Origin: an uncultured Phycisphaerae bacterium
GTDB taxonomy: Bacteria > Planctomycetota > Phycisphaerae > JAAYCJ01
Assembly: GCA_964563935.1 (NCBI GenBank)
Contig: CAZLZE010000002.1
Coordinates: 6,205 to 70,204, forward strand
Reading direction: 5' to 3'
DNA: 64,000 nt
Shown: one piece after another, positions 1-11,920 of the stretch
Layout of the letters: each line of letters starts with the position of its first letter
How positions within the stretch are numbered: the stretch's first letter is position 1
The notes under the pieces: generated by a model
Told to the model about the DNA's origin: nothing
The model's input: only the letters and a program-made list of their open reading frames with translations
Databases searched by the model: none
Made by a program: the position numbers and the translations under genes

Positions 1-638
1 AGACCTACCAGCCCGAATACACCGCATCGCGGGAACGAACCGAAGTGAAGCTGACACTCGAACCTTACCAGTCCACGTTCATCGTTTTCGAGGATGGAGA
101 GTCCCTGAATTCCGACGCGATGGAAAGAAGATGGCTGGAGAAGGAGTTGGTGTTCGGACCCGCTCTCGGCGGTCCGTGGAAGGTCTCCTCCGCCACGGCG
201 AAAGAATATCCCCGCTTCACTCCGCGTCCCGAGATCACCGGGCTTGGAAACATCTCCATCCCCTCCGTTCTCCCGAACTTCTCCGGAACTCTTCGATATG
301 AAATGACGTTCGATCTCCAGGACATCCCGGCGGCGAAAGCAGATGTAAAGGTCTTCCTGGATCTGGGCAAGGTCTATGAACTGGCAGACGTTCGATTAAA
401 CGGTAAACACGTCGGAACCCGGATCTGCCCCCCCTATCGCCTGAACATCACCGACACCGTCAAACCCGGGAAGAACGAGCTTCAAGTAGACGTGACGAAC
501 ACGCTGGCCAAGCAGCTTGGAACCAACGGACTCGATCGAGCCTGGCCTCAGGAACCGTCGGGCCTTCTTGGCCCGGTCCGGCTGGCGTGGACGACAGGGA
601 AACCCGAGCAAGACGAATTCCTAATGACGAATGTCTAA
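1..638 (+). CDS. Glycoside hydrolase C-terminal beta-sandwich (GH2/GH106-type), 5'-partial
   Basis: Frame is open from the window edge. Motif DLGKVYELADVRLNGKHVGTRICPPYRLNIT..VKPGKNELQVDVTNTL..PSGLLGPVRL is typical of these C-terminal domains. Confidence 0.75.
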   Translation, partial: TYQPEYTASRERTEVKLTLEPYQSTFIVFEDGESLNSDAMERRWLEKELVFGPALGGPWKVSSATAKEYPRFTPRPEITGLGNISIPSVLPNFSGTLRYEMTFDLQDIPAAKADVKVFLDLGKVYELADVRLNGKHVGTRICPPYRLNITDTVKPGKNELQVDVTNTLAKQLGTNGLDRAWPQEPSGLLGPVRLAWTTGKPEQDEFLMTNV

Positions 639-745
639 TCAATGTCGAATGCCTCAATGACGAACCAGGAGGCGTGCCCTGGGCGAAGCTCTGATCTCCT
701 AAGCTGAAAGCTGAGAGCTGACGACTGAGAGCTCTTCTCGTCATT
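621..745. repeat. Short-period (7-nt) imperfect repeat element with inverted ends
   Basis: AATGACG/AATGTC(T/G) units at 621-664; AGCTGAA-AGCTGAG-AGCTGAC-GACTGAG at 702-729; CTCGTCATT (737-745) is a near reverse complement of AATGACGAA. Confidence 0.7.
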
Positions 746-843
746 GTGGAGGGTAGGATAACATCGCGTCCTTGCATGTAGCCGGCCCGGGTCCATAGGC
801 AGACACAGTAAAAATGTTCTTGCGCTTTTCTTTGGCCCGGATA

Positions 844-871
844 TTGAACTTTCCAGAGAAATGACTACAAT
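844..871 (+). promoter_or_regulatory. Putative sigma70 promoter for tRNA-His
   Basis: TTGAAC (844-849), 16 nt, TACAAT (866-871); 15 nt upstream of the tRNA. Confidence 0.55.
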
Positions 872-885
872 ATTATAGCTTACAT

Positions 886-960
886 GGTGAGAGTAGCTCA
901 ATTGGTTAGAGCACCAGGTTGTGGTCCTGGGGGTTGCGGGTTCGATTCCCGTCTCCCACC
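886..960 (+). tRNA. trnH: tRNA-His (GTG), CCA not encoded
   Basis: Encoded G-1 and C73. D arm AGCTCAATTGGTTAGAGC; anticodon arm CCAGG-TTGTGGT-CCTGG; T arm GCGGG-TTCGATT-CCCGT; acceptor GTGAGAG/CTCCCAC with one A-C mismatch. Confidence 0.97.
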
Positions 961-962
961 CG

Positions 963-1961
963 TTGAACTGGTTGGCAATTTTGGAACATTATGATCTGCC
1001 CCGGCAGGTGAATCTGGTTCCCATCGGGGGAACGGCGAGTCAGAGCCTCCGGGTGGAAACGGCGACCGGAAACTATATCCTCCGATGTCGACCGGCGGGG
1101 ATGGCTAAAGAAGAATTCATCGAATACGATCATACCTTGCGCACGTTTCTCGCCGATCATTATTTTCCCACGCCCAGACTCAAGCCCGCGAAATCCGGAT
1201 ACACCTGGGTGGAAGTAGACGGACAGATATTCGAAATGTCCTGCCTCCTGGCCGGCCAGGTTGTTCCCGTGCCCAACGCCCGCCAACTGCATTCCGCGGG
1301 ACACGCCCTCGCCCTGTTTCACCAACTGACAGTTGATTTTGATCATCCCGGAAAAGCAAACTTCGTCCGTGAGGACCACGTCTCAATACTTCAGCCGCTG
1401 CTCGATGAACTGTACACTCTGGCACAAGACACCCGCGAGCGGGAGGAACTGGACCAGATCCAGGGACAACTAAAAATCCTCAGCACGCTCGACGCCGACG
1501 GATTCTTCGAGCCCCTTCAGCCGGGGGTGATCCACGGCGACCTTCATCCGGGGAACGTCTTGTTCACGGGCAATTATGTCTCCGCCCTGCTGGATTATGA
1601 TTACGCCAGCCCGGGTCCCGCCATGCGCGATATCGGCGACGGCCTCGTCTTCTTTGCCTCGCGGCGACCGCGGGATTTCGACCTCAACGATATCTGGTCG
1701 CTGACGCAAGGCTGGAAACCGGACACCGATCGGGCGATGGCGTTCCTTCGCGGCTACACCTCCATTCGACCGCTGCCCGACGACTGGCCCACGACCAGCC
1801 ACATCCTGCTTTCCCGCTGGCTTCAGGTAAAACTGCGAGGCTCGCGAAAAGTGCCGAAGGAAGAAAAAATCCGCTTCGTGCTGACAGACCTGTGGGACGT
1901 CGTCCGCTGGCTGGAACATTACTTCCACGGCTGGTTCACACAGTTGATCATGGACCTGTAG
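963..1961 (+). CDS. Phosphotransferase (APH / type II homoserine kinase family)
   Basis: Brenner motif IHGDLHPGNVLF and LLDYD. The track start (921) lies inside the tRNA; the first usable start is TTG at 963 (972 and 981 are alternatives). Confidence 0.85.
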   Translation: MNWLAILEHYDLPRQVNLVPIGGTASQSLRVETATGNYILRCRPAGMAKEEFIEYDHTLRTFLADHYFPTPRLKPAKSGYTWVEVDGQIFEMSCLLAGQVVPVPNARQLHSAGHALALFHQLTVDFDHPGKANFVREDHVSILQPLLDELYTLAQDTREREELDQIQGQLKILSTLDADGFFEPLQPGVIHGDLHPGNVLFTGNYVSALLDYDYASPGPAMRDIGDGLVFFASRRPRDFDLNDIWSLTQGWKPDTDRAMAFLRGYTSIRPLPDDWPTTSHILLSRWLQVKLRGSRKVPKEEKIRFVLTDLWDVVRWLEHYFHGWFTQLIMDL

Positions 1962-1990
1962 CGTTGCGGCGACAGAGCCACATTCATCGC

Positions 1991-2099
1991 AATGTCTAAT
2001 GACGAATCAATGACCAAATTCCGAATGACCTAAAAGAGCTTCGCCCACGTCACGCCTCACGGTTCGTCATTAGACATTCGTCATTAGGAACTCGTCATT
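1991..2099. repeat. Palindromic AATGAC-type repeat element
   Basis: AATGTCTAATGACGAA (1991-2006) and its exact reverse complement TTCGTCATTAGACATT (2063-2078), plus extra degenerate units; same family as 621-745. Confidence 0.8.
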
Positions 2100-2156
2100 T
2101 CAGATCCGCCCTTAGACGGGTCCACCACTTCCGAGCCGTAGACCGCGGACTGTTTT

Positions 2157-2267
2157 CCACCGCAAAGGTCGCGAAGGACGCAGAGCAGAGGTAACTGTCT
2201 CGTTAAGATCGGAACTCTACGTTCTTTGCGATTCGATCTTTTTCGTGTCTTGGCGCCTTCGTGGTGA
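2157..2267. repeat. Palindromic 9-nt-period repeat element
   Basis: CGCAAAGGT-CGCGAAGGA-CGCAGAGCA (2161-2187) face inverted units CTCTACGTT-CTTTGCGAT (2215-2232) and CTTGGCGC-CTTCGTGGT (2249-2265). Confidence 0.7.
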
Positions 2268-2515
2268 GCAAGATGGTGGGCACAGATCACTGCTCCCCTT
2301 CTATCCTCCTCGCTGAAAGTCGACGGCGAAGAAGAAATTTCACCGCCCCCACTCCCAGATAACCACTGCTCAGGGCTGGCCTTAGCGATTTCGCCCCATC
2401 CCCATCAAAAAAAACATAAAAAATCTCAAAAAAGTTCCCCAAACTTTGCCCGCCAGTGTCACCATTCTATAGAGACGAACGGATATTCTTGTTCGAATCA
2501 GGAGTTGACGGACCG

Positions 2516-3520
2516 ATGAACGACAAAACGACACAATGGACGATGGTCGCCTCGATGCTGGGCCTCAACCGCCTGCCGCAGGCGTGGAAATGGCCCGGAA
2601 GGTCGATTCGTATCCCTCGGATCGCCGGGTACGATGTCGTCCGGGTACTTCTGGGCCTCGTGCTGCTGACGGCGGCGGGACTTAAGGGCTATCAACTGGC
2701 CACCGAGCCGACGCTGGACAAAACTCTCTTCACCTCCCGGTGGCTCCTGATTGCCCAGGTGGAGTTTGAGCTTTTCATGGGCATCTTCCTCCTAAGCGGG
2801 TTATATAAGCGCCTGGTCTGGCTGGTGATGCTTGTCTGTTTTGTCGCCTTTTCGTGCGTGACGCTGTACAAGGGTCTTTCCGGCGAGGCGTCCTGCGGGT
2901 GTTTCGGGAAGATTGAAATCAATCCTTGGTATACGTTTGTGTTCGATACCTGTGCCATCATGGTATTATTGACGTTTCGCCCCGAAAGGACCAATTCTCG
3001 TCCCATGCAACCCAGCTGGGGAAGACCCGTGATGTTAGTGGTGCTAGTCCTCGCCGCCACCATCTCCGGCGGCTGGACCATGGCCAGGTATCAGCCTGCC
3101 GTTCTCGACTCCGACGGCGATCTGATCGGAGACAGTGATTTCATCGTCCTCGAACCGGAAGCGTGGATCGGAAAACCTCTCCCGCTTCTGAGGTATATCG
3201 ACATCGGTCACAGATTGGCAAAAGGGAAATGGGTGGTGATCCTGTATCATCATGATTGCGCTGACTGCAAGGAGGCCATTCCCAAATACGAGCAGATGGC
3301 CCTCGAAGTTGCTGACAAACCGGAAGCACCTCGATTCGCCTTCATTGAAGTGCCACCGTGTGTAGTGGATCGCTTCGATCCAAGAATCGCGGTTTGTGAC
3401 TACGGAGTTCTGACGGATAGGAAACAGTGGTTCGTTGAGACGCCGACAGTCATTTCATTGGAAGATGGCAAAGTGATACAGACGTCACGCGGTCTCTTCC
3501 AGAGCGGTGAAAGGGGGTGA
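2516..3520 (+). CDS. MauE/DoxX-family membrane protein fused to thioredoxin-like domain
   Basis: Several TM helices with SCGCFG motif; C-terminal LYHHDCADC (CxxC) in a Trx-like beta-alpha context. ATG 2516 follows GGAG. Confidence 0.8.
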   Translation: MNDKTTQWTMVASMLGLNRLPQAWKWPGRSIRIPRIAGYDVVRVLLGLVLLTAAGLKGYQLATEPTLDKTLFTSRWLLIAQVEFELFMGIFLLSGLYKRLVWLVMLVCFVAFSCVTLYKGLSGEASCGCFGKIEINPWYTFVFDTCAIMVLLTFRPERTNSRPMQPSWGRPVMLVVLVLAATISGGWTMARYQPAVLDSDGDLIGDSDFIVLEPEAWIGKPLPLLRYIDIGHRLAKGKWVVILYHHDCADCKEAIPKYEQMALEVADKPEAPRFAFIEVPPCVVDRFDPRIAVCDYGVLTDRKQWFVETPTVISLEDGKVIQTSRGLFQSGERG

Positions 3521-3611
3521 TGCCTATGAGCGTCTTATGAAGTCGTTAGTGTGGAATCTGGTCAGATTTGCGCTATGAAGGACAATTCTGTCAATGAAAG
3601 GAAAAACTCAA

Positions 3612-4031
3612 ATGAAATGGAAGATTCTAGTTGTTTTGGGGCTCATTCTGCTGGCGTGTGCCAGCCAAACCGTCACAGCCATGACACCCTTGTCGGAAGA
3701 TCAAATGGAGTCTGTAGTTGGCGCTTCAGGCTTCATGCAGTCATGTACTGGTACTTCGAACTGTCCGGGAAGGTGCGTGGCGCCAACCAAATGCACGCAG
3801 GTAATTACTCCGTTGACACACTATTGCCGCAGGGACAATGGTACGGCCGGATGCAGCAGTTCCGGGACATTCAAGGATTGTGAATGGGCGTGGTGTCTAT
3901 GGTGCTCGAATGGCGGGCCCGGACGATGTGGAAACTACGAGCTTCCGTACTGTGAATCGTCGTATGGATACTGCACAGGTATGGCTGGCTGCTCAAATAC
4001 GGGCGCTGCTTGTAAAAATGATTGCACATAG
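3612..4031 (+). CDS. Secreted Cys-rich precursor with signal peptide and double-glycine-type leader
   Basis: RBS GAAAGGA. MKWKILVVLGLILLACASQTVTA, then MTPLSEDQMESVVGA, then a 101-aa core with 15 Cys. Confidence 0.85.
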   Translation: MKWKILVVLGLILLACASQTVTAMTPLSEDQMESVVGASGFMQSCTGTSNCPGRCVAPTKCTQVITPLTHYCRRDNGTAGCSSSGTFKDCEWAWCLWCSNGGPGRCGNYELPYCESSYGYCTGMAGCSNTGAACKNDCT

Positions 4032-4045
4032 TTAACCATAACGAC

Positions 4046-4084
4046 ACAATGTTATTCAGGCTGATTTAGCCTGAATAACATTGT
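4046..4084 (+). terminator. Perfect 17-bp stem-loop (terminator or mRNA-stabilising hairpin)
   Basis: ACAATGTTATTCAGGCT-GATTT-AGCCTGAATAACATTGT, followed only by a weak T-rich tail. Confidence 0.7.
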
Positions 4085-4110
4085 ACTATTTATTGGAAGG
4101 ATTTCACATT

Positions 4111-5520
4111 ATGTTAAAGCACATTGGAAATGGACTGTTTATAATCGGGCTTCTTGTTTTGCCTCAAATCTGTGCAGCTGTTCACGCTGAAGGGATTCAA
4201 GTGGAGGATGTACTGGACGGCATGGAGGCACGGCGGTCTCAGATTGCTGATATGGAGCATCAGTATACCATCAGCCAGAACAACACAGACGACTTCTATA
4301 AGTTTTCCAGGCAGAGGGTTGAGGAATATAGACAACAATCCCCGGACTTGGCCGAGAAGGCGGGAGGACTGATCGTTCCTGAGGGTCTGAGTGCATCTCG
4401 AGAGTCATCCTCAAGCTATCATCTCTTTGTGAAAGGAAACAAGCGAGCTTTCGAAGACTACAGCGTTAACACTAAGGACAAATCACGAACCCTTATGCAG
4501 CAAGGGGCATACGATGGCGAGACCCTCAAACTCCTAGAACCGCAACGGTTAAGCGGCCTCTTGAAACGAGAGTCGCCTCAGAATATTCTCCGGTTCCCGA
4601 CGTTCCCCAAGATGTTGGGATTGGAAGGCCGAGAGTTATCTGAATACCTCAAAAGTGACGGGGTGGAGTGTCAGGTCACGGGAACCAAGATTGTTGATGG
4701 GGACACGAACGTGGAATTGCTCATCCGCCGCCGACACACACCCGTGCCCGAACAGCCCATCGAGACAGTTATTGAACATCGCGTGACGATCAATGCACAG
4801 AAGAACTTCTGGCCGACGAAAATCGAGCGATATGATGAGATCCGAAACGTGTCGACCGGTGAATCCGCCCGTTCCCTGAAAAAACGGATTGAGGTTGGGG
4901 AGTTTGCGGAAAGCAATGGCGTCTTTTTCCCAAAACAGATTCAGGAGAGCAACTACGAATGTGAATACAGCTATTCCCAGGGAGGGCTCATTCCCAAGCT
5001 GTCCGAACCCAAACTGACGGCGTCAGTCCGGACCGTTACCGAAAAGCTCGCCATCAATACAGGATTGTCCGATGATGCCTTCAAGCTGGAGTTCCCGAAA
5101 GGTACTCGCTATTACGACGCAAACTTGGGCATGGCCGTCGTCGTCGGCGCCGATCCTCTGCAAATGGCCGAGGAAATGGCTCGCAACGCCGATGCCCTCC
5201 CGGTCAAACTGTTCACCGAAGAGCAGGCCAAAGCCATTCTCGAACTCCGGCGACAAGGGAAGGTTAAAGAGGCTGAAGCCCTCAGGCGGCAGATTCTGGA
5301 CGCAAAACGCCCACCAGCAGCGACTACCAAACCGTCCGAACTCGCGAGCACCCCGACCTCAACGCCTGCTGGAGCCAAGGTCCCCGTAACCACTGTCGTA
5401 CAAGCAGGCGGGACCTCCTGGCTTGTCTACGCGGTCGTCATCTTGTTCTGTTTTGTTCTCGGCGCCGCTTTGGTTCTTGTCCGCCGATGGAGGAATGAAC
5501 ATGTCAATGAGCATCGATAG
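4111..5520 (+). CDS. Secreted hypothetical protein with C-terminal membrane anchor
   Basis: Signal peptide MLKHIG..AVHA; beta-rich body ending FKLEFPKGTRYYD; Pro/Thr-rich linker; TM helix and RRWR tail. Confidence 0.8.
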   Translation: MLKHIGNGLFIIGLLVLPQICAAVHAEGIQVEDVLDGMEARRSQIADMEHQYTISQNNTDDFYKFSRQRVEEYRQQSPDLAEKAGGLIVPEGLSASRESSSSYHLFVKGNKRAFEDYSVNTKDKSRTLMQQGAYDGETLKLLEPQRLSGLLKRESPQNILRFPTFPKMLGLEGRELSEYLKSDGVECQVTGTKIVDGDTNVELLIRRRHTPVPEQPIETVIEHRVTINAQKNFWPTKIERYDEIRNVSTGESARSLKKRIEVGEFAESNGVFFPKQIQESNYECEYSYSQGGLIPKLSEPKLTASVRTVTEKLAINTGLSDDAFKLEFPKGTRYYDANLGMAVVVGADPLQMAEEMARNADALPVKLFTEEQAKAILELRRQGKVKEAEALRRQILDAKRPPAATTKPSELASTPTSTPAGAKVPVTTVVQAGGTSWLVYAVVILFCFVLGAALVLVRRWRNEHVNEHR

Positions 5521-7300
5521 AATCAGATCCGTTCCGTTCGTGCCCGATTTGTGTTTCTCCGGGCACGTGTCGAGAGCAAAACGCCGTGTGTACGATCTCA
5601 TCAATGCGATCAACAGGTACGCACATGTGAGGCGCAATCGGCACCGTGCTGTGATGCTGATTCTGGGTACGTGCCTTTGTGTTTCGTCTGTTCTTGCCGA
5701 TCAGGGCGACATCCGGCCGATCCGTAACTGCGGCGCGCAGTGTGCCCTTATGCTGTGTCGATACTTTCAGGTCAATGTTCAGGAGGAACAGTTACAGAAG
5801 TACCTTGGTCCGCAAGATAAGGGGACTGTGTCCCTGCACGAATTGAAAGAATGCTTCCAAGCCCTTGGGTTTGACTCCCTTGCCTTTCAAGGGGACTCGG
5901 AGGACTTGAAGAAGAGCGTACATCCGATTATCCTGCATTTCCGGCCGGTACGAAATGAAAAAGTGGGGCATTTCCTCGTGGTCATGATGGACTTCAAACG
6001 CGGCCAGCTCGTGGCGTACGACCCCTCGTTTGCCGGGCGGCCTATTGATCTGGATGATAAGACCCTCCAAAGGTACTGGACGGGAAAGGGACTGATGGTT
6101 TGGCCTCGCTATGCCAACCATTTGCCACAAGAACGTTTCCCGGGATCGCTGTGGCTTTCGGCTCTTGCTTCTGTGTTCTGTGGAGCAGTCTTCACCCATC
6201 TACTCACCTTCCGTTCTCAGAAAGGAATCTTCTTCGTCCCATTACTGGTTTGGGCGGCGGGACTCTGTTACGCTGAAGCCAAGCCGTCTGCTCTTCCTAC
6301 CGTCAAGCCTGAAAAGGAAGTCAACTTGGGGATGCTTCCTGAAGGACGCAATGAAGTGCAGTACGACTTCTCCTGGCGGAACCCCTATTCCGAGACGTTG
6401 ACGATTCAGCGAATCTCCAAAAGCTGTGGATGTGAAGTCGTGCGCCCGAGCGCAATGCAGATACCACCCCAAGGAGATCTCAAACTGCATCTCTACGTCG
6501 ATGCGGCCAAATGGAATGGACAGGCAGCAGTATCCTTTGTCGTCTTCTTCACCAAGTCCTCCATTCAGCCCAGACTCTTCACCCTGAACTTCTTCCGACC
6601 GAAAAGTCTGCAGGCCGATCCGCCGACCGTGGATTTCCAGACCGTTGACGACCCATCGACCGCCATTCGATCATTCAGGTTCGCGTGGGTCTCCGATAAG
6701 ACACAGAAGAATGTGCACATTGAGGAAAGCAAAATCACCTGTAATCGCGACCTCCTGCGCTGCCGATTCCTGAAGACCACCACCAGGGAATTTCGTCTTC
6801 CCAATGCGGCCGCCGTGACCCGGGAACAGGCATTCTTTTACGAGGTTCGTACCGCGCCCGGAATCCGTGAAGGCGAGTTCCATGATACCATTAGTATTCC
6901 GGTTCAGATTGGAGACGACAGACGGGTGCTTCGCGTCCCCGTTGCTGGATATGTTCCGAAGCAGATAACCGCTCAACCATCCAAGATTATTGCGTTCCTG
7001 TCACCCGATAAGATTCAGACGGCGAAATGGCTGGTATCCCTGGTGGCGCGAAAGGACATGAAAGCTCCAGAGAATACAGTAGTCAGTGGCATTGAATACG
7101 ATCGGAGCAAGCTGTCGGTTGTCGCGTTGACTAGGCCCCAAATGAAAGATGGGAACATCATTCAGACACTGCAAATCTCTCTCAACAAGAATGCGGCCGG
7201 AGACTCCGTCAAAACAGCAATCCATCTCCTGTGTCAAGTTGGCAAGGAGAAGGTCAATCTGGACATTCCAGTGAAAGTTATCGTTGCCACGCGGAAGTGA
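5501..7300 (+). CDS. C39-family cysteine peptidase fused to TM segment and DUF1573-like Ig domain(s); start uncertain
   Basis: NCGAQCALML..YF, IILH..GHFLVV and VAYDPS give a Cys/His/Asp triad; later WRNPYSETLTIQRISKSCGCE (DUF1573-like); no ABC domain. Start could be 5495, 5501 or ~5651. Confidence 0.8.
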   Translation: MSMSIDRIRSVPFVPDLCFSGHVSRAKRRVYDLINAINRYAHVRRNRHRAVMLILGTCLCVSSVLADQGDIRPIRNCGAQCALMLCRYFQVNVQEEQLQKYLGPQDKGTVSLHELKECFQALGFDSLAFQGDSEDLKKSVHPIILHFRPVRNEKVGHFLVVMMDFKRGQLVAYDPSFAGRPIDLDDKTLQRYWTGKGLMVWPRYANHLPQERFPGSLWLSALASVFCGAVFTHLLTFRSQKGIFFVPLLVWAAGLCYAEAKPSALPTVKPEKEVNLGMLPEGRNEVQYDFSWRNPYSETLTIQRISKSCGCEVVRPSAMQIPPQGDLKLHLYVDAAKWNGQAAVSFVVFFTKSSIQPRLFTLNFFRPKSLQADPPTVDFQTVDDPSTAIRSFRFAWVSDKTQKNVHIEESKITCNRDLLRCRFLKTTTREFRLPNAAAVTREQAFFYEVRTAPGIREGEFHDTISIPVQIGDDRRVLRVPVAGYVPKQITAQPSKIIAFLSPDKIQTAKWLVSLVARKDMKAPENTVVSGIEYDRSKLSVVALTRPQMKDGNIIQTLQISLNKNAAGDSVKTAIHLLCQVGKEKVNLDIPVKVIVATRK

Positions 7301-7418: not shown

Positions 7419-9026
7419 TCACGCCTCGACGCGGGCTTCGGCGGATTCGACCAGGGTGCCGCCGGTTTCGGGCGATTGTGCCAAGGAGCTTAGGCGAAGA
7501 TACGACACACCGACGGTTTCGCGAAGCAAAGGCAGCGTACAAAACGCCTGGCCGCTGACCAGGACCTGGCATTGGCGCTTGGCGAGATCCCAATTGAGTT
7601 CCAGGTCGTGCCAGACGTTCGGCTTCACCATCGCCGGGGTTAGTTCCAGATTAAAAAGATTGTAAAAGCGGTCCTCCAGATCGAACGGAACGGAAAAATG
7701 GTCCGTAAGCCCGATGCGGACGCCCCCGGATCCTGCTTTCACCATCATCCGAAGACGAAGCTGGCCGCATCGTCCCGAAGGGAAGTTCCACACGGCGGCG
7801 GCAGGCCAATCGGCGTCGATTCGTCGCAATTCGAGAACCTTTGCATTCGCCTTCTCCGGATGCGGGGAGAATTCCACGCCCTTCGTTCCAAATTTGGCCC
7901 ATTCCTCTTCGCCCGCGTCAAAATCCGCCTTCTGTGAAGTCTCCAGCAGCCAGTTCGGATCCATCTGCATCAGGAGCACTCGCCCTTTGCCCTGGCCCGT
8001 GCAGTAGAGCACCTTGCCGTCGTTCGCCGTCGTCGGAAAAGGATACCCCGTCCCGAAGTCGCCGTTGGGCGGAGGCGGTTCGAGACGCCGCGGATCGCGG
8101 GCCACTTCACGATAGCCGCGCCACGTCTGGCCTTCGTCATCCGAAATGGCGGCGTGAATGACGTGCCGACCACCGAAGGCATAAGGGAAGCGCAGGCAGT
8201 TGTTCCAGAAAAGCACGATGCGGCCATCGTCCAGCCGCGTCAATCCCGCCGGTGAATCGGACGACAGGATCGACGTCGGACGCGGTGACGACCAGATCGC
8301 GCCGTCATCGGAAAACGACTCATAGAACCGCCCCTGCTGCGTGCGGATCAGCATCCACACCCGCCTGTCCTTAAGCTGCAGGACCATCGGCTCGACCGCA
8401 CCGTACGCGGAGACGATATCCGGCACGGGCACGCGAATATTCGACCCCTGTGCCCAGGTCGCCCCGCCGTCGTCGGAATAGATCACCGTGCAATCATACT
8501 GACCCATGAACGTGTAGGTGTCGAGCCCTTCGCCGCGTTTGTCCCACGCACGCGTGGTCAGCCACGAAAACGGCAGCAGGATTCGTCCATTGGTCATCTG
8601 GATCACCGAATTCAGCGCGCCGGTATACCCCTTCCAGATCAGCCGGGGACTCGACCATGTCGTCCGCGCCCCGCTCGATCGAGCATACCAGATGTCGAGC
8701 CGAACATTCGTCAGTTCGCCGATCAGCACCCGCTCGCCTTCGCCCTCGCCCGTCACCGCCCCCGCCGGATCGTTCATAATGAAAAGATGCACCTCGCCAT
8801 CACGCGTCAGAAGAGGCATGACCCAGATCCAGCTTCCCGGCCCTTTTGACCGCTCCAGCAGGCGCTCGGGTTCGCCCCAGGACGCGCCGTTGTCTTTCGA
8901 CAAACGGCTAACGACTTCCTGCGTCTGGTCGCTCGCCTGAACAAAAACGCTCATGAGCGTTCCGTCGGCGAGCCGTAGAACGATCAGGGGGTTATCCATG
9001 ACGAATAGGGCAATCGGTTTGGCCAT
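7419..9026 (-). CDS. Sialidase-family / BNR-repeat protein
   Basis: Asp-boxes SKDNGASW, SDDGGATW, SDDGAIW, SDDEGQTW. Confidence 0.85.
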   Translation of the reverse strand: MAKPIALFVMDNPLIVLRLADGTLMSVFVQASDQTQEVVSRLSKDNGASWGEPERLLERSKGPGSWIWVMPLLTRDGEVHLFIMNDPAGAVTGEGEGERVLIGELTNVRLDIWYARSSGARTTWSSPRLIWKGYTGALNSVIQMTNGRILLPFSWLTTRAWDKRGEGLDTYTFMGQYDCTVIYSDDGGATWAQGSNIRVPVPDIVSAYGAVEPMVLQLKDRRVWMLIRTQQGRFYESFSDDGAIWSSPRPTSILSSDSPAGLTRLDDGRIVLFWNNCLRFPYAFGGRHVIHAAISDDEGQTWRGYREVARDPRRLEPPPPNGDFGTGYPFPTTANDGKVLYCTGQGKGRVLLMQMDPNWLLETSQKADFDAGEEEWAKFGTKGVEFSPHPEKANAKVLELRRIDADWPAAAVWNFPSGRCGQLRLRMMVKAGSGGVRIGLTDHFSVPFDLEDRFYNLFNLELTPAMVKPNVWHDLELNWDLAKRQCQVLVSGQAFCTLPLLRETVGVSYLRLSSLAQSPETGGTLVESAEARVEA

Positions 9027-9041
9027 GAAAAACTGTCCTTT

Positions 9042-10148
9042 CTACACCGTAAACTTGAACCAGCGAATGTTCGACACGCAATCCTCGTAGCCCCAGAACG
9101 CGACGAAGATCGAGCCGTCCTTCGTACGCGTAATGCACGGGGCTCCGAATCGCAGCACGGCGAAGTTCTTTGACATATTGTCCGACGTCGCCGTCAATCC
9201 CTGCACCTGGTGGCCCCAGAGCGGCTCGGCCGCCTCATTGACCCAGCGATCGCCGTCAAGGTGCGAAAAGTTCGCCCACAATCCGGGCGTATCCATCCGC
9301 CGATACACACACAAAAACCGCCCGTCGTCGAGGACAAACGGCGTCAGCGTCTGGCCCAAAAGCCCCGTCGACGCCGGCTGAGACCACGTCTTTCCGCCGT
9401 CCTTGCTGAGCACGTACTGATTGGGCCGATCCTTCTTCGCCTTTTCATCATACGCCCAGGCCACCGCCATCAGCCGCCCGTCAGGAAGCTCGAGGATCTT
9501 CGACTCCCAATAAAATACACTGAAGTCCGATTCCTTCATCACATCCCAATACTCAGGCCATGTCTTGCCGCGATCGTGCGAGACCAGCGCCACCATCTTC
9601 TTGCCGTTCGGGCAGCTTCCGTCCCACCCCGGCCAGGTGGATGTCGGTATGATCCAGCGCCCGTCACGAAGCGGCGTGATCGGGCAGCACTGCTCAAACG
9701 ACGGCCCCACCAACGGCGGCTTGATCGGCGACGGCTCGGACCAGGTCCGTCCAAAATCCTTCGATCGGAGAAGTAACAGTTCCGTCGGAACGAACCCCTG
9801 CGTCTCAGGGCTGGTCAGCCCTTCCTCCGGATGATCCGTCCGATCGCTCCGCACCATAAACACCGCCGCCTCACCGTCCGCAAACGCAGTGATCCGGCAA
9901 TAATCCGACGTCACTCGGTCCTTCGTCCCGGGATAGATCCTGCCTTGCAGGGTCCACGTCTCTCCGTTATCGGTCGATCTTGCGATGTAGGTGTGGGAAT
10001 CGGCCGACTCGAACGCCTGGCCCAACGCCAGCGTCGCCACCATCTCGCCGTTACTCATCACAGCCACCGATGGAAAATACGCATGCTCGCTGCGAACGTG
10101 CGGTTTGGGGTTTCGGTAAATCAGTCCGCTCCTGAGATTCTTTAGCAT
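9042..10148 (-). CDS. Sialidase-family / BNR-repeat protein
   Basis: Asp-boxes STDNGETW, SKDFGRTW, SHDRGKTW, SKDGGKTW. Confidence 0.85.
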   Translation of the reverse strand: MLKNLRSGLIYRNPKPHVRSEHAYFPSVAVMSNGEMVATLALGQAFESADSHTYIARSTDNGETWTLQGRIYPGTKDRVTSDYCRITAFADGEAAVFMVRSDRTDHPEEGLTSPETQGFVPTELLLLRSKDFGRTWSEPSPIKPPLVGPSFEQCCPITPLRDGRWIIPTSTWPGWDGSCPNGKKMVALVSHDRGKTWPEYWDVMKESDFSVFYWESKILELPDGRLMAVAWAYDEKAKKDRPNQYVLSKDGGKTWSQPASTGLLGQTLTPFVLDDGRFLCVYRRMDTPGLWANFSHLDGDRWVNEAAEPLWGHQVQGLTATSDNMSKNFAVLRFGAPCITRTKDGSIFVAFWGYEDCVSNIRWFKFTV

Positions 10149-10177
10149 ACTAAACTCCTTGAGTGATAATTCATCTG

Positions 10178-11920
10178 TTATCCGCCCCAGAAAATGGGAA
10201 ATCGTCCGTCCAAAATCTCGTTTCCGATCCGGTGAACGGGCAGCGAAAGGGGCTTCTCGCTCGCGTGCCGCATTCGCAACTCAAACTCCTCGGGCCGGCC
10301 GAAACGGCATATGGCCGACCACCAGGAAATATTGTCGGTAAAGGCGTCCCAGAGGCAAATCCCGTCCGCGCCGTCGGCGAACAGCGTTTTGATGTCGTTA
10401 AGATGGTTCGCCAGGGGTTCGAAAATATTGAGCATGGGAAAAATCCTGACCTTGCCGCATTCCCTGACTTCGCGGAAGAATTTCATGTCCCATGTTCGCT
10501 TGGTCTCGCCAAACCCGTACTTGTACGCGTGAATCTCATCGACCAGCCCTTCCCTCACCATCCGGCGAAGGTCCACCGCATAGCGAAGATTGTCCGCCTC
10601 GTCGCCCAATACACACACGCTGATCTCGAGCCGTTTGCCATTCCCCCGCCACCCTTCTTCGCGATCCAGCATATCGCGAACTTCCTTCATAAATGTAATG
10701 ACCACATCGGATCGCAATTTCTGAATGCGCGGGTCCGATTCGTCCAGCGCGTGCGGGTCCTCGCCATACTGCTTTCGAAACAACTCGCAGAACGCCGGTT
10801 CATACAGCACCATGGGAAAACCGCGATTAAAGACAATGTGCACGCCATCCGCCCCAAGTTCGACGGCCTCGCGAAGAACGTCCAGCAAATGCGCCCGCAC
10901 CTCCGGCACCGCCCAACTCATCCGCGCTACCGGCGTACCGTCTTTGTCTATCGTTCGCCATTCCGGATGCCGGCGGTAGAACGGCGACTCAAACAGGTCC
11001 GTGTACGGCGGGTAGTAACTCCATAACGCCGGACGAAACCCCACGTGTACCTTCATCCCGATATCGTGAGCCCCGTCGATCAGTACCTTCGTGGGATTGA
11101 TCTTCTTTCGAGCCAGTTCCCGAACCGCTTCCACAAAGTACCGGTCGCCCGCTTCGGGGAAACTGTCGATGTCCTGCCCGAACATAAACCCGAATTTGGA
11201 GGGATAATTCACCTGGTCCGAACCGCCCAGGTGCAGCAGAAGCGTCTTGAAATCCGTATCGCGATAGATCTCGACTTCCGAGAGCAGCTCCTCTTCCGTC
11301 GTGGGACGGCGCTCGTAGATGAAACTGAACCCATCGCATGAAGCCGCCAGCGACCGCCGGGTCGGATTGTCCCGATCCGCCAGAAAACCGGAAATCTCCG
11401 CCTCGCTCAGCGGAATCAACTTGATGTAGGCGACACTGCAGCGGTGAATAATCCCACCCGGGGTCTGCGAAATCTCAAGGCACTGATCCTTCAGTTCCGC
11501 CACCTTGTAAAAGATGTCCTGAATATTCCAGTAGCCCTGATCCACCTTGGTCGATCGCGGAATCGAGGCCCGCTGACCGTCGAGTTTCAGCCAGACCTGA
11601 GTCTTGCCCCCCGGAACCACACACAACATCCCCACGAAGATGGCATACCATCCATTCACCGGCAGAGGCACCCGAACCTTGGGCACGCGATTATCCTCGA
11701 ATGCCCAGATCAGGTTCCCCTGAATTCCCCCCGCCTCGTAAGGAAATACCCGCCAGGCCCCCTGCTTCAGCCGTGAGGAACAGGCTTCGGGAGGCACAAA
11801 GCGAGTCATGTCCGACAAGATTACCGCCTTGTCCCAGTTCGCCCAGTTTGACGCCAGAATGCCTGTCCAAGGCTTCTGTTCACTCGCGCCCGTCGTGCCC
11901 ATGACCGTTCCTTTCCTCAT
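10178..11920 (-). CDS. Putative glycoside hydrolase (GHL10/DUF187-like TIM barrel)
   Basis: FYRRHPEWR..MSWAVPEVRAHLLDVLREAVELGADGVHIVFNR pattern; 580 aa. Confidence 0.6.
   Translation of the reverse strand: MRKGTVMGTTGASEQKPWTGILASNWANWDKAVILSDMTRFVPPEACSSRLKQGAWRVFPYEAGGIQGNLIWAFEDNRVPKVRVPLPVNGWYAIFVGMLCVVPGGKTQVWLKLDGQRASIPRSTKVDQGYWNIQDIFYKVAELKDQCLEISQTPGGIIHRCSVAYIKLIPLSEAEISGFLADRDNPTRRSLAASCDGFSFIYERRPTTEEELLSEVEIYRDTDFKTLLLHLGGSDQVNYPSKFGFMFGQDIDSFPEAGDRYFVEAVRELARKKINPTKVLIDGAHDIGMKVHVGFRPALWSYYPPYTDLFESPFYRRHPEWRTIDKDGTPVARMSWAVPEVRAHLLDVLREAVELGADGVHIVFNRGFPMVLYEPAFCELFRKQYGEDPHALDESDPRIQKLRSDVVITFMKEVRDMLDREEGWRGNGKRLEISVCVLGDEADNLRYAVDLRRMVREGLVDEIHAYKYGFGETKRTWDMKFFREVRECGKVRIFPMLNIFEPLANHLNDIKTLFADGADGICLWDAFTDNISWWSAICRFGRPEEFELRMRHASEKPLSLPVHRIGNEILDGRFPIFWGG

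Follow-up and report, generated by a model that had tools for sequence, protein, structure and literature searches.

We analysed a 64-kb stretch of DNA (64,000 nucleotides; hereafter the window) from an uncultured Phycisphaerae bacterium and followed up one cassette in it. At positions 2516-7300 on the + strand, four consecutive co-directional open reading frames (ORFs), g1 to g4, encode a fusion of MauE with a putative thioredoxin-like domain (MauE-Trx), a Cys-rich precursor, a membrane-anchored protein that is probably LolA-like, and a C39 peptidase fused to DUF1573. An earlier note on this DNA had proposed that the precursor is exported through the Sec pathway, folded oxidatively and relieved of a double-glycine (GG) leader outside the cytoplasm. 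The features of the cassette are listed below.

2516..3520, + strand: g1, MauE/DoxX-type membrane protein with a predicted periplasm-facing thioredoxin-like domain
3612..4031 (alternative ATG 3594), + strand: g2, precursor of 139 aa with 16 Cys
3612-3680, + strand: signal peptide of g2, MKWKILVVLGLILLACASQTVTA
3681-3725, + strand: propeptide of g2, MTPLSEDQMESVVGA
3726-4028, + strand: core of g2
4046..4084, + strand: hairpin between the g2 stop and g3, with a perfect 18-bp stem and a 3-nt loop, followed by ACTATTTATT
4111..5520, + strand: g3, 469 aa, with a signal peptide (aa 1-~28), a probable LolA-like half-barrel and a C-terminal transmembrane (TM) anchor (aa 441-457)
5501..7300, + strand: g4, 599-aa fusion (P0003) of C39 (aa ~70-205) and DUF1573/Ig-like (aa ~270-599), with TM1 (aa 50-66), TM2 (aa 219-235) and TM3 (aa 242-258) called by hydropathy

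The likely start of g3 is 4111 instead of 4081, and that of g4 is 5501, which has GGAGGA 6 nt upstream and gives a 20-nt overlap with the end of g3. The four co-directional genes described in the earlier note are all present on the + strand. The lower GC content that it reported is real and modest: 52.9% against a window mean of 55.6% (2.7 percentage points), which puts the cassette within the lowest 1.7% of equal-sized stretches of the window. Its gene assignments stand as well. The match of g1 to Pfam MauE (PF07291) scores 40 bits against a cut-off of 27, g2 holds the small Cys-rich precursor with signal peptide and GG-type leader, and g3 has by hydropathy the signal peptide and C-terminal TM segment of an anchored secreted protein. 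The C39 peptidase does come without an ATP-binding cassette (ABC) transporter, as an ABC signature and a Walker A motif occur together in no ORF of the 64-kb window, and no ABC exporter is found in the window or among the annotated neighbours of the related loci described below. Pfam and NCBIfam searches of the four proteins also found no class-defining enzyme (lanthipeptide, radical SAM, YcaO or others) of ribosomally synthesized and post-translationally modified peptides (RiPPs), nor is there one among the annotated neighbours of related loci, in agreement with the claim that the cassette fits no standard RiPP class.

A conserved four-part core in related loci

Searches with the precursor and with g4 led to related loci in different ways. 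A single-sequence search with the precursor gave two matches, a 99% copy and a homologue at 43%, both of them on contigs that are short and AT-rich; P0004 and P0005 came from a profile search. The precursor homologues are P0001, P0002, P0004 and P0005, and the precursor itself is rare. With g4, a word-index search returned the self-match alone, and an exhaustive HMMER search returned 401 proteins at E <= 1e-3, the best 149 of which besides g4 were analysed. Eight loci were picked by C39/DUF1573 similarity alone, with L018 cut in g3 by the contig end. All seven of these C39/DUF1573-anchored loci that have upstream sequence (L013-L017, L019 and L020) show precursors of the same kind, as one to three small ORFs directly upstream of the g3-like gene. 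Their cores contain 12-19 Cys, except for a 96-aa ORF in L019 with 6 Cys.

The order precursor(s), g3-like gene, C39 with DUF1573 is found in the window and in L008, L010, L013, L014, L015, L016, L017, L019 and L020. Nine further complete loci therefore have homologous or analogous precursors beside the g3-like, C39 and DUF1573 genes, and the co-occurrence on which the proposal of the earlier note depended is borne out. L008, which encodes P0004, reads ECF sigma, FecR, MauE-Trx, precursor, g3 homologue, C39, DUF1573, and L010, which encodes P0005, reads precursor, g3, C39, DUF1573. In L001 the gene behind the precursor begins with the same sequence as the g3 homologue of L008. The g3 and C39 frames overlap by 4-20 nt in most loci, and the two are fused in P0058, while g3, C39 and DUF1573 form a single polypeptide in P0073, P0085, P0088 and P0154. 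The named members belong to Pirellulales and Phycisphaerae metagenome-assembled genomes (MAGs). A pattern scan of metagenomes found L012 alone, which is the same contig as L010.

By gene content, the conserved core is the precursor, the predicted LolA-like protein, C39 and DUF1573, with MauE-Trx optional. MauE-Trx occurs in 4 of the 10 complete loci (the window, L008, L017 and L019), which makes it an accessory to the invariant four-part core. The weight that the earlier note gave to MauE-Trx needs correction in this respect; g3 and DUF1573, which are invariant partners, were under-weighted there.

Some loci carry more than one candidate precursor. Tandem paralogous precursors, two or three per locus, are found in L016 (5828-6754), L019 (4097-5462) and L020 (3973-4961), with divergent cores and similar leaders, an arrangement that resembles multi-precursor bacteriocin or RiPP loci. 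Extra short ORFs of 59 and 99 aa lie upstream of the main precursors in L013 (3787-3966) and L014 (4577-4876); their N-termini look like signal sequences, their tails, rich in CxxC or CC, hold 7-12 Cys, and one abuts an extra DUF1573 gene. Clusters whose precursors belong to a subgroup with the sequence GGA↓C adjoin genes for GT-C/PMT-type polytopic membrane glycosyltransferases or an unassigned 697-aa polytopic protein (L019, 1-719 and 8713-10806; L020, 310-2469). Since the cores in these clusters are Ser/Thr-rich, periplasmic glycosylation is conceivable there.

A double-glycine leader behind a signal segment

In all six frames of the 64 kb, g2 is the sole ORF with an N-terminal hydrophobic segment and at least 8 Cys. 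Its core of 101 aa contains 15 Cys and begins SGFMQSC, and the g2 precursors belong to no Pfam or NCBIfam family. The predicted product is a small disulfide-rich protein of about 100 aa and not a RiPP-type peptide, its disulfides being predicted from the Cys content. The RiPP framing of the earlier note is therefore loose, and its description of the product as a peptide does not hold for a core of this length.

The 15-aa leader of the window precursor is acidic and has the hydrophobic residues L-12, M-7 and V-4, with S-11 beside the first, and ends in G-2 and A-1; it thus combines G-G/A at -2/-1 with hydrophobic residues at -4/-7/-12. The leader that the earlier note had read in g2 is kept in homologous precursors: in 16 of 16, an acidic stretch of 15-20 aa that closes with G-G/A lies behind a hydrophobic N-terminus of signal type, hydrophobic residues occur at or near the canonical -4/-7/-12, and the G-G/A sits at the aligned site just ahead of the first core Cys. 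In an alignment of nine sequences (A5) the aligned G is invariant, and core identity falls to 17-24%. A close subgroup follows the pattern TPLSENE(M/L/K)(S/A)S..GA, and a distant subgroup is exemplified by LTPALSDEIASAQGG↓A, which has E-8, I-7 and A-4 if cut after GG. In every homologue a hydrophobic signal segment lies ahead of the leader, which is accordingly not the extreme N-terminus.

This conservation bears on the possibility that the leader is coincidental, the Cys-rich ORF being an ordinary Sec-secreted protein whose GG-like motif has no processing role and the real target of C39 being its own chain, g3, DUF1573 or an anti-sigma factor such as the FecR encoded nearby in L008 and L017. 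Cleavage of the precursor by C39 is indeed a prediction, FecR-type anti-sigma genes do lie directly ahead of MauE-Trx in L008 and L017, and the substrate of the periplasmic C39 peptidase FapD, discussed below, likewise lacks a canonical leader. We nevertheless give this explanation very little credence, as G-G/A occupies the same aligned position in 16 of 16 precursors despite core identities of 17-24%, FecR is absent from 8 of the 10 loci, and the GG dipeptides of the window g3 are not conserved in g3 alignments.

The segment ahead of the leader varies in how it could be removed. AxA-type signal-peptidase sites are present in the precursors of the window, L014, L016 and L019 (TVTA↓M, GASA↓S, AFA↓S and GASA↓Q), and the predicted cuts would free leaders of 15-21 residues, a canonical length. 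P0002, P0004 and P0005 have hydrophobic segments of 19-20 residues followed by a PYLRQSNPVGVK-type sequence with no small-x-small site. These three raise a second alternative, in which the N-terminal segment is not cut by signal peptidase I and C39 serves as a private signal peptidase that frees a tethered precursor. The short and fairly constant distance from the hydrophobic segment to G-G/A would suit such a role, and enzyme and substrate would share one plane, since membrane anchors are present in C39, in g3 and, for the window, in DUF1573. The good AxA-type sites in the window, L014, L016 and L019 precursors, which would leave a canonical leader behind if cut, argue against it, and we consider it quite unlikely.

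Two other readings of the N-terminus were rejected. A cytoplasmic GG peptide starting at Met24 (MTPLSEDQ...) would require a start codon where P0002, P0004 and P0005 have Leu or Lys, and the Met24 start was discarded because this residue is not conserved while the upstream signal segment is. A lipoprotein reading fails for both candidate lipoboxes: LLA↓C in the window signal peptide is not conserved, and GGA↓C is not conserved either and lies 15-20 polar residues past the hydrophobic region.

The hairpin at 4046-4084 is a terminator-like match with a minimum free energy of -26.9 kcal/mol (z = -6.9; 0 of 200 shuffles as stable), and is probably an attenuating terminator or an mRNA-stabilising element. 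Strong hairpins of unrelated sequence also stand right behind the precursor stop in L001, L008, L010 and L015, and their recurrence is consistent with control of the precursor-to-machinery ratio.

The precursor genes are easily overlooked in annotation. The JGI annotation omits the window precursor and calls a wrong-frame 46-aa ORF at 3743-3883 (+) of the window. In the PGAP-annotated record of a Phycisphaerae MAG (L017), HUW82139 (MauE) is followed by HUW82140 (g3) with no protein between them, and the precursor stretch at 2254-2808 is uncalled; the annotations of L014 and L015 likewise lack precursor calls. On the AT-rich contig L001, an 18-codon ORF, MWKFWMIGKADLFDENSF, lies at 36-92 just upstream of the P0002 precursor. 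It has a very strong AGGAGG-type ribosome-binding site, and may be due to chance or be a small regulatory ORF.

Predicted location of the C39 peptidase

The C39 part of g4 (aa 76-203) matches Peptidase_C39 (PF03412) with 65.7 bits (cut-off 22), and the C-terminal part matches DUF1573 (PF07610) with 34.4 bits (cut-off 26.1). The match to TIGR01193 reaches 24 bits against a cut-off of 523.85 and covers the C39 part alone. The catalytic triad is intact, with Cys77 (NCG; nt 5729-5731), His157 (GHFLVV) and Asp174 (AYDP). These columns match TRDCG, LQHYYVV and IIGDP of the ComA peptidase domain PEP (3k8u), whose aligned residues we take to be the catalytic residues of ComA, and they were also aligned to PCAT1 (4ry2).

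The 49 aa ahead of TM1 hold 12 K/R, and TM2 and TM3 are joined by the basic loop TFRSQK. This K/R bias, read by the positive-inside rule, predicts that both C39 and DUF1573 of g4 lie outside the cytoplasm. In L008, L010, L017 and L018 the C39 and DUF1573 halves are separate genes. Each of the separate C39 proteins (~190-205 aa) starts with a hydrophobic segment of signal type, which ends a few residues ahead of (G/A)CG, and is anchored by a TM segment at its C-terminus; across the standalone homologues the sequence behind the signal-type segment follows the pattern (G/S)CGExC. The separate DUF1573 proteins (~370 aa) have their own signal peptide; TM2 of the window g4 is the counterpart of the C39 C-terminal anchor, and TM3 that of the DUF1573 signal peptide. 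The case for an extracytoplasmic C39 is much stronger because the standalone homologues carry their own signal segment and anchor. Among the best 149 of the 401 relatives of g4, 112 contain C39, and the catalytic Cys was located in 109 of them. A hydrophobic segment is found within 45 residues upstream of this Cys in 79 of the 109, of which 64 have a further TM segment on the downstream side. The upstream segment is absent from all eight PCAT-sized matches, and most of the remaining C39 relatives without it are N-terminal fragments or have C39 behind a fused g3 domain. K/R bias and the signal and anchor segments of homologues thus both predict the C39 domain on the side of the membrane where the earlier note had placed it.

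Partner proteins of the cassette

g3 gave no sequence-level match in Pfam, NCBIfam or PDB profile searches. Two family alignments (A2 and A3) were made for it, and LSDDAFKLEFPKGTRYYD lies at aa 319-336. An AlphaFold2 model from a six-sequence alignment has a predicted local distance difference test score (pLDDT) of 59.8 overall and about 85 in the beta core. Foldseek matches to the model include the DUF1329 structure 4z48 (E 2e-8), P. gingivalis LolA3 (9tp6; 1e-7) and LolA (1e-2 to 1e-3), with target TM-scores of 0.39-0.53, or 0.45-0.53 for LolA-type targets. On the strength of this model g3 is probably LolA-like. The model, in which an N-terminal helix leads into a long antiparallel half-barrel, resembles the LolA/LolB/DUF1329 carriers; unlike them, g3 is about twice as long, is anchored to the membrane at its C-terminus and has no sequence-level match. 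In addition, the precursor partners of g3 are not consistently lipoproteins, in contrast to those of LolA-type systems.

g1 has five predicted TM segments by hydropathy. Its basic N-terminus and two short basic loops fall on one side of the membrane, and SCGCFG (aa 126-131, nt 2891-2908), in a predicted periplasmic loop, falls on the opposite side together with the C-terminal domain. This domain of about 145 aa contains DCADC (aa 247-251, nt 3254-3268) and ETPT at aa 308, of which TP is a cis-Pro-like motif. The match to Pfam Thioredoxin is sub-threshold (E 0.096). In a profile of four orthologous domains, 28 of 29 PDB matches are to thioredoxin-fold chains, each weak (best E 0.004), and they align at the CxxC and TP regions; these weak but uniform matches suggest that the domain is thioredoxin-like. 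Full-length orthologues that cover both domains are found in L008 (39% identity), L017 (52%) and L019. Genes for an extracytoplasmic function (ECF) sigma factor and a FecR-type anti-sigma factor lie directly upstream of MauE-Trx in L008 (6466-8893) and L017 (3-1253), and in this arrangement the FecR stop overlaps the MauE start. The pair suggests that envelope signals control the cassette in some lineages; there is no such pair near the window cassette.

The DUF1573 part of g4 has a CxC motif, SCGCE (aa 308-312, nt 6422-6436), which is kept in nearly all DUF1573 homologues inspected, one of which has CPSC instead. g4 also resembles the NCBIfam OS_HP2 model NF041425 (E 1.6e-7, below its cut-off), and pfam07610 was described as the OS_HP2 selenoprotein family, with UxC, in the GOS selenoproteome paper (PMC2398784). 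A thiol-disulfide role is suggested because selenocysteine usually replaces a redox-active Cys and members of the family have UxC. By this analogy DUF1573 may itself be a redox partner, and such a role, if real, would explain how 12-19 Cys are handled in loci without MauE-Trx. The literature on DUF1573 is essentially limited to selenoprotein surveys.

Comparison with known systems

The closest relatives of the peptidase by family are the peptidase-containing ABC transporters (PCATs) such as ComA, CvaB, LagD and PCAT1 (PF03412 with TIGR01193), which have the same Cys/His/Asp triad. PCAT systems also share the form of the leader (about 15 aa, acidic, hydrophobic at -4/-7/-12, G-G/A at -2/-1) and a precursor gene in the same operon that is followed by a hairpin. 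The cassette differs in having no ABC transporter and a peptidase with its own signal peptide or anchor that is predicted to face the periplasm. Its leader sits behind a Sec signal peptide instead of at the N-terminus of a cytoplasmic peptide, its cargo is about 100 aa long with 12-19 Cys, and the putative LolA-like protein and DUF1573 are obligatory partners.

Extracytoplasmic C39 activity is already known from FapD, a member of the Fap system of Pseudomonas. FapD is a standalone periplasmic C39 with a Sec signal peptide, whose catalytic Cys is required for function and which is needed for secretion of the Fap amyloid subunits; the substrate of FapD is not established (PMC5557850). FapD was the only periplasmic C39 found in the searchable literature, and no paper was found that combines C39 with DUF1573. 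FapD and the C39 of the cassette are both signal-bearing, not fused to an ABC transporter and periplasmic, the last being predicted here. The Fap system has the outer-membrane barrel FapF and amyloid subunits without canonical GG leaders, whereas the cassette has neither barrel nor amyloid repeats, and neither FapF nor FapB/C/E repeat subunits were found in the window or the nine related loci. Unlike FapD, the peptidase of the cassette is membrane-anchored, linked or fused to LolA-like and DUF1573 modules, and co-encoded with a predicted substrate that has a canonical leader.

In a further alternative, the periplasmic C39 would be a checkpoint protease of envelope assembly or secretion, as in Fap- or Fil-like systems, and would not mainly trim a soluble product. 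Cleavage would then allow the Cys-rich subunit to polymerise, to attach to the surface or to enter an outer-membrane route, with g3 as carrier and DUF1573, with its PapD/HYDIN-like Ig fold, as chaperone. Such a gate could draw on FapD itself, a periplasmic C39 required in amyloid secretion whose substrate is not established, on the overlap of DUF1573 with the HYDIN/VesB Ig-like Pfam family, on the probable LolA-like fold, which suggests a carrier, and on the two or three tandem precursors in L016, L019 and L020, which are common for fibre subunits. There is also a weak similarity of g4 to the NCBIfam entry "putative pilus system C39 family peptidase FilB" (E 3e-5), but the score is 23 against a cut-off of 475. 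Moreover, none of the 10 loci contains an outer-membrane barrel, usher or secretin, and the cores lack amyloid-type repeats and pilin-like features. We regard this explanation as unlikely, and it would still include cleavage at the GG site, so that it differs in the fate of the product and not in the chemistry.

MauE and MauD act in the maturation of methylamine dehydrogenase (MADH) in mau clusters, beside a small secreted multi-disulfide protein. The cassette shares with these clusters a MauE-family membrane protein and a periplasmic CxxC thioredoxin-like domain near a small secreted protein with many disulfides, as predicted here; it differs in that the MauE and thioredoxin-like functions are fused in one polypeptide, which is accessory in 4 of the 10 loci. 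A MADH-type system was rejected. There is no MauA (PF02975), MauB or tryptophan tryptophylquinone context, the genes nearby encode glycoside hydrolases, an APH kinase and BNR proteins, and g2 and g3 match no Pfam family at E <= 0.1, the MADH light chain included. Sec-dependent class II bacteriocins such as enterocin P are small and have a Sec signal peptide and no dedicated ABC exporter. The cassette product resembles them as a small secreted protein of this type, but enterocin P-type bacteriocins lack both a second propeptide of GG type and dedicated partners of the C39, LolA-like, DUF1573 or MauE kinds.

Surroundings of the cassette

The cassette is flanked (window 1-2455 and 7419-11920) by carbohydrate-active genes that are functionally unrelated to it: GH2 and GH106 precede it in the longer contig, and downstream the minus strand carries two sialidase-like genes of the BNR_2 type. 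Rfam gave no match in the cassette and found only a tRNA-His in the window, at 887-961. An APH-family kinase gene (963-1961) starts 2 nt past the end of this tRNA-His (GTG; + strand). The tRNA lies about 1.5 kb upstream of the cassette, the 4.8-kb stretch with the lowest GC in the window, and could mark an island boundary.

Discussion

We read domains, catalytic residues, signal and anchor segments, gene order, fusions and leader conservation directly from the sequence. From these, the cassette is likely a module dedicated to maturing a small secreted protein, rich in disulfides, outside the cytoplasm, and as far as computation goes the interpretation of the earlier note is supported. The precursor would cross the inner membrane by Sec through its N-terminal signal peptide. 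After the signal-peptidase cut, or while still signal-anchored where the AxA site is unclear, the 15-20-aa GG-type propeptide would be exposed. The Cys-rich core would be oxidised and isomerised in the periplasm, by MauE-Trx where present, and the CxC of the DUF1573 Ig-like module probably contributes, as the UxC of its selenoprotein members suggests. The membrane-anchored, probably LolA-like g3, which is translationally coupled to C39 and physically fused to it in other lineages, may hold or present the pro-protein. The membrane-tethered periplasmic C39, with Cys77, His157 and Asp174, would then cut after VVGA and release a mature protein starting SGFMQSC. The hairpin would keep precursor mRNA in excess over the machinery.

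Several points weigh against this maturation module. Export, the cleavage site, the redox roles, and where the product ends up and what it does there are matters of inference, and signal peptides and topology were called from hydropathy and the positive-inside rule only. The structural models are limited, with pLDDT of 36 for the precursor and moderate confidence (~60) for g3. Since P0002, P0004 and P0005 have no clear signal-peptidase site, their leader may stay membrane-anchored until the C39 cut. The free catalytic thiol of C39 would need protection in an oxidising compartment, 6 of the 10 loci have no MauE-Trx within the available sequence, and the clusters contain no outer-membrane component to carry the product across the outer membrane. 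Neither precursor nor g3 was matched in a pattern scan of 185,579 GTDB species representatives, and all support therefore comes from metagenome contigs and MAGs; such scans rely on short exact patterns, and their negatives are weak evidence.

In the textbook view, double-glycine leaders and C39 peptidases belong together with cytoplasmic export that is coupled to ABC transporters. The arrangement described here was not found in the searchable literature, and what appears to be new is a GG-type leader that is predicted from its position to be trimmed outside the cytoplasm, after Sec. We tentatively raise the further possibility, which we hold to be somewhat doubtful, that the cassette represents a new, self-contained and apparently Planctomycetota-centred periplasmic maturation machine of LolA-like protein, C39 and DUF1573, with the GG leader as a post-Sec pro-sequence and the CxC of DUF1573 as a new disulfide catalyst or chaperone. 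If this is true, the machine would define a new class of secreted proteins that depend on Sec, are GG-processed and have many disulfides, and would show that the chemistry of GG recognition and cleavage can be uncoupled from ABC export by acting after Sec. It would also give the FapD-like clade of periplasmic C39 peptidases a first clear rationale for the choice of substrate, the predicted substrate with its explicit cleavage site being a testable target. A working context is thereby offered for DUF1573, a large family that is typical of Planctomycetes and has selenoprotein members, and for the unannotated LolA-like family. The multi-disulfide mini-proteins themselves, which are routinely missed by gene callers, could be toxins, signals or envelope components.

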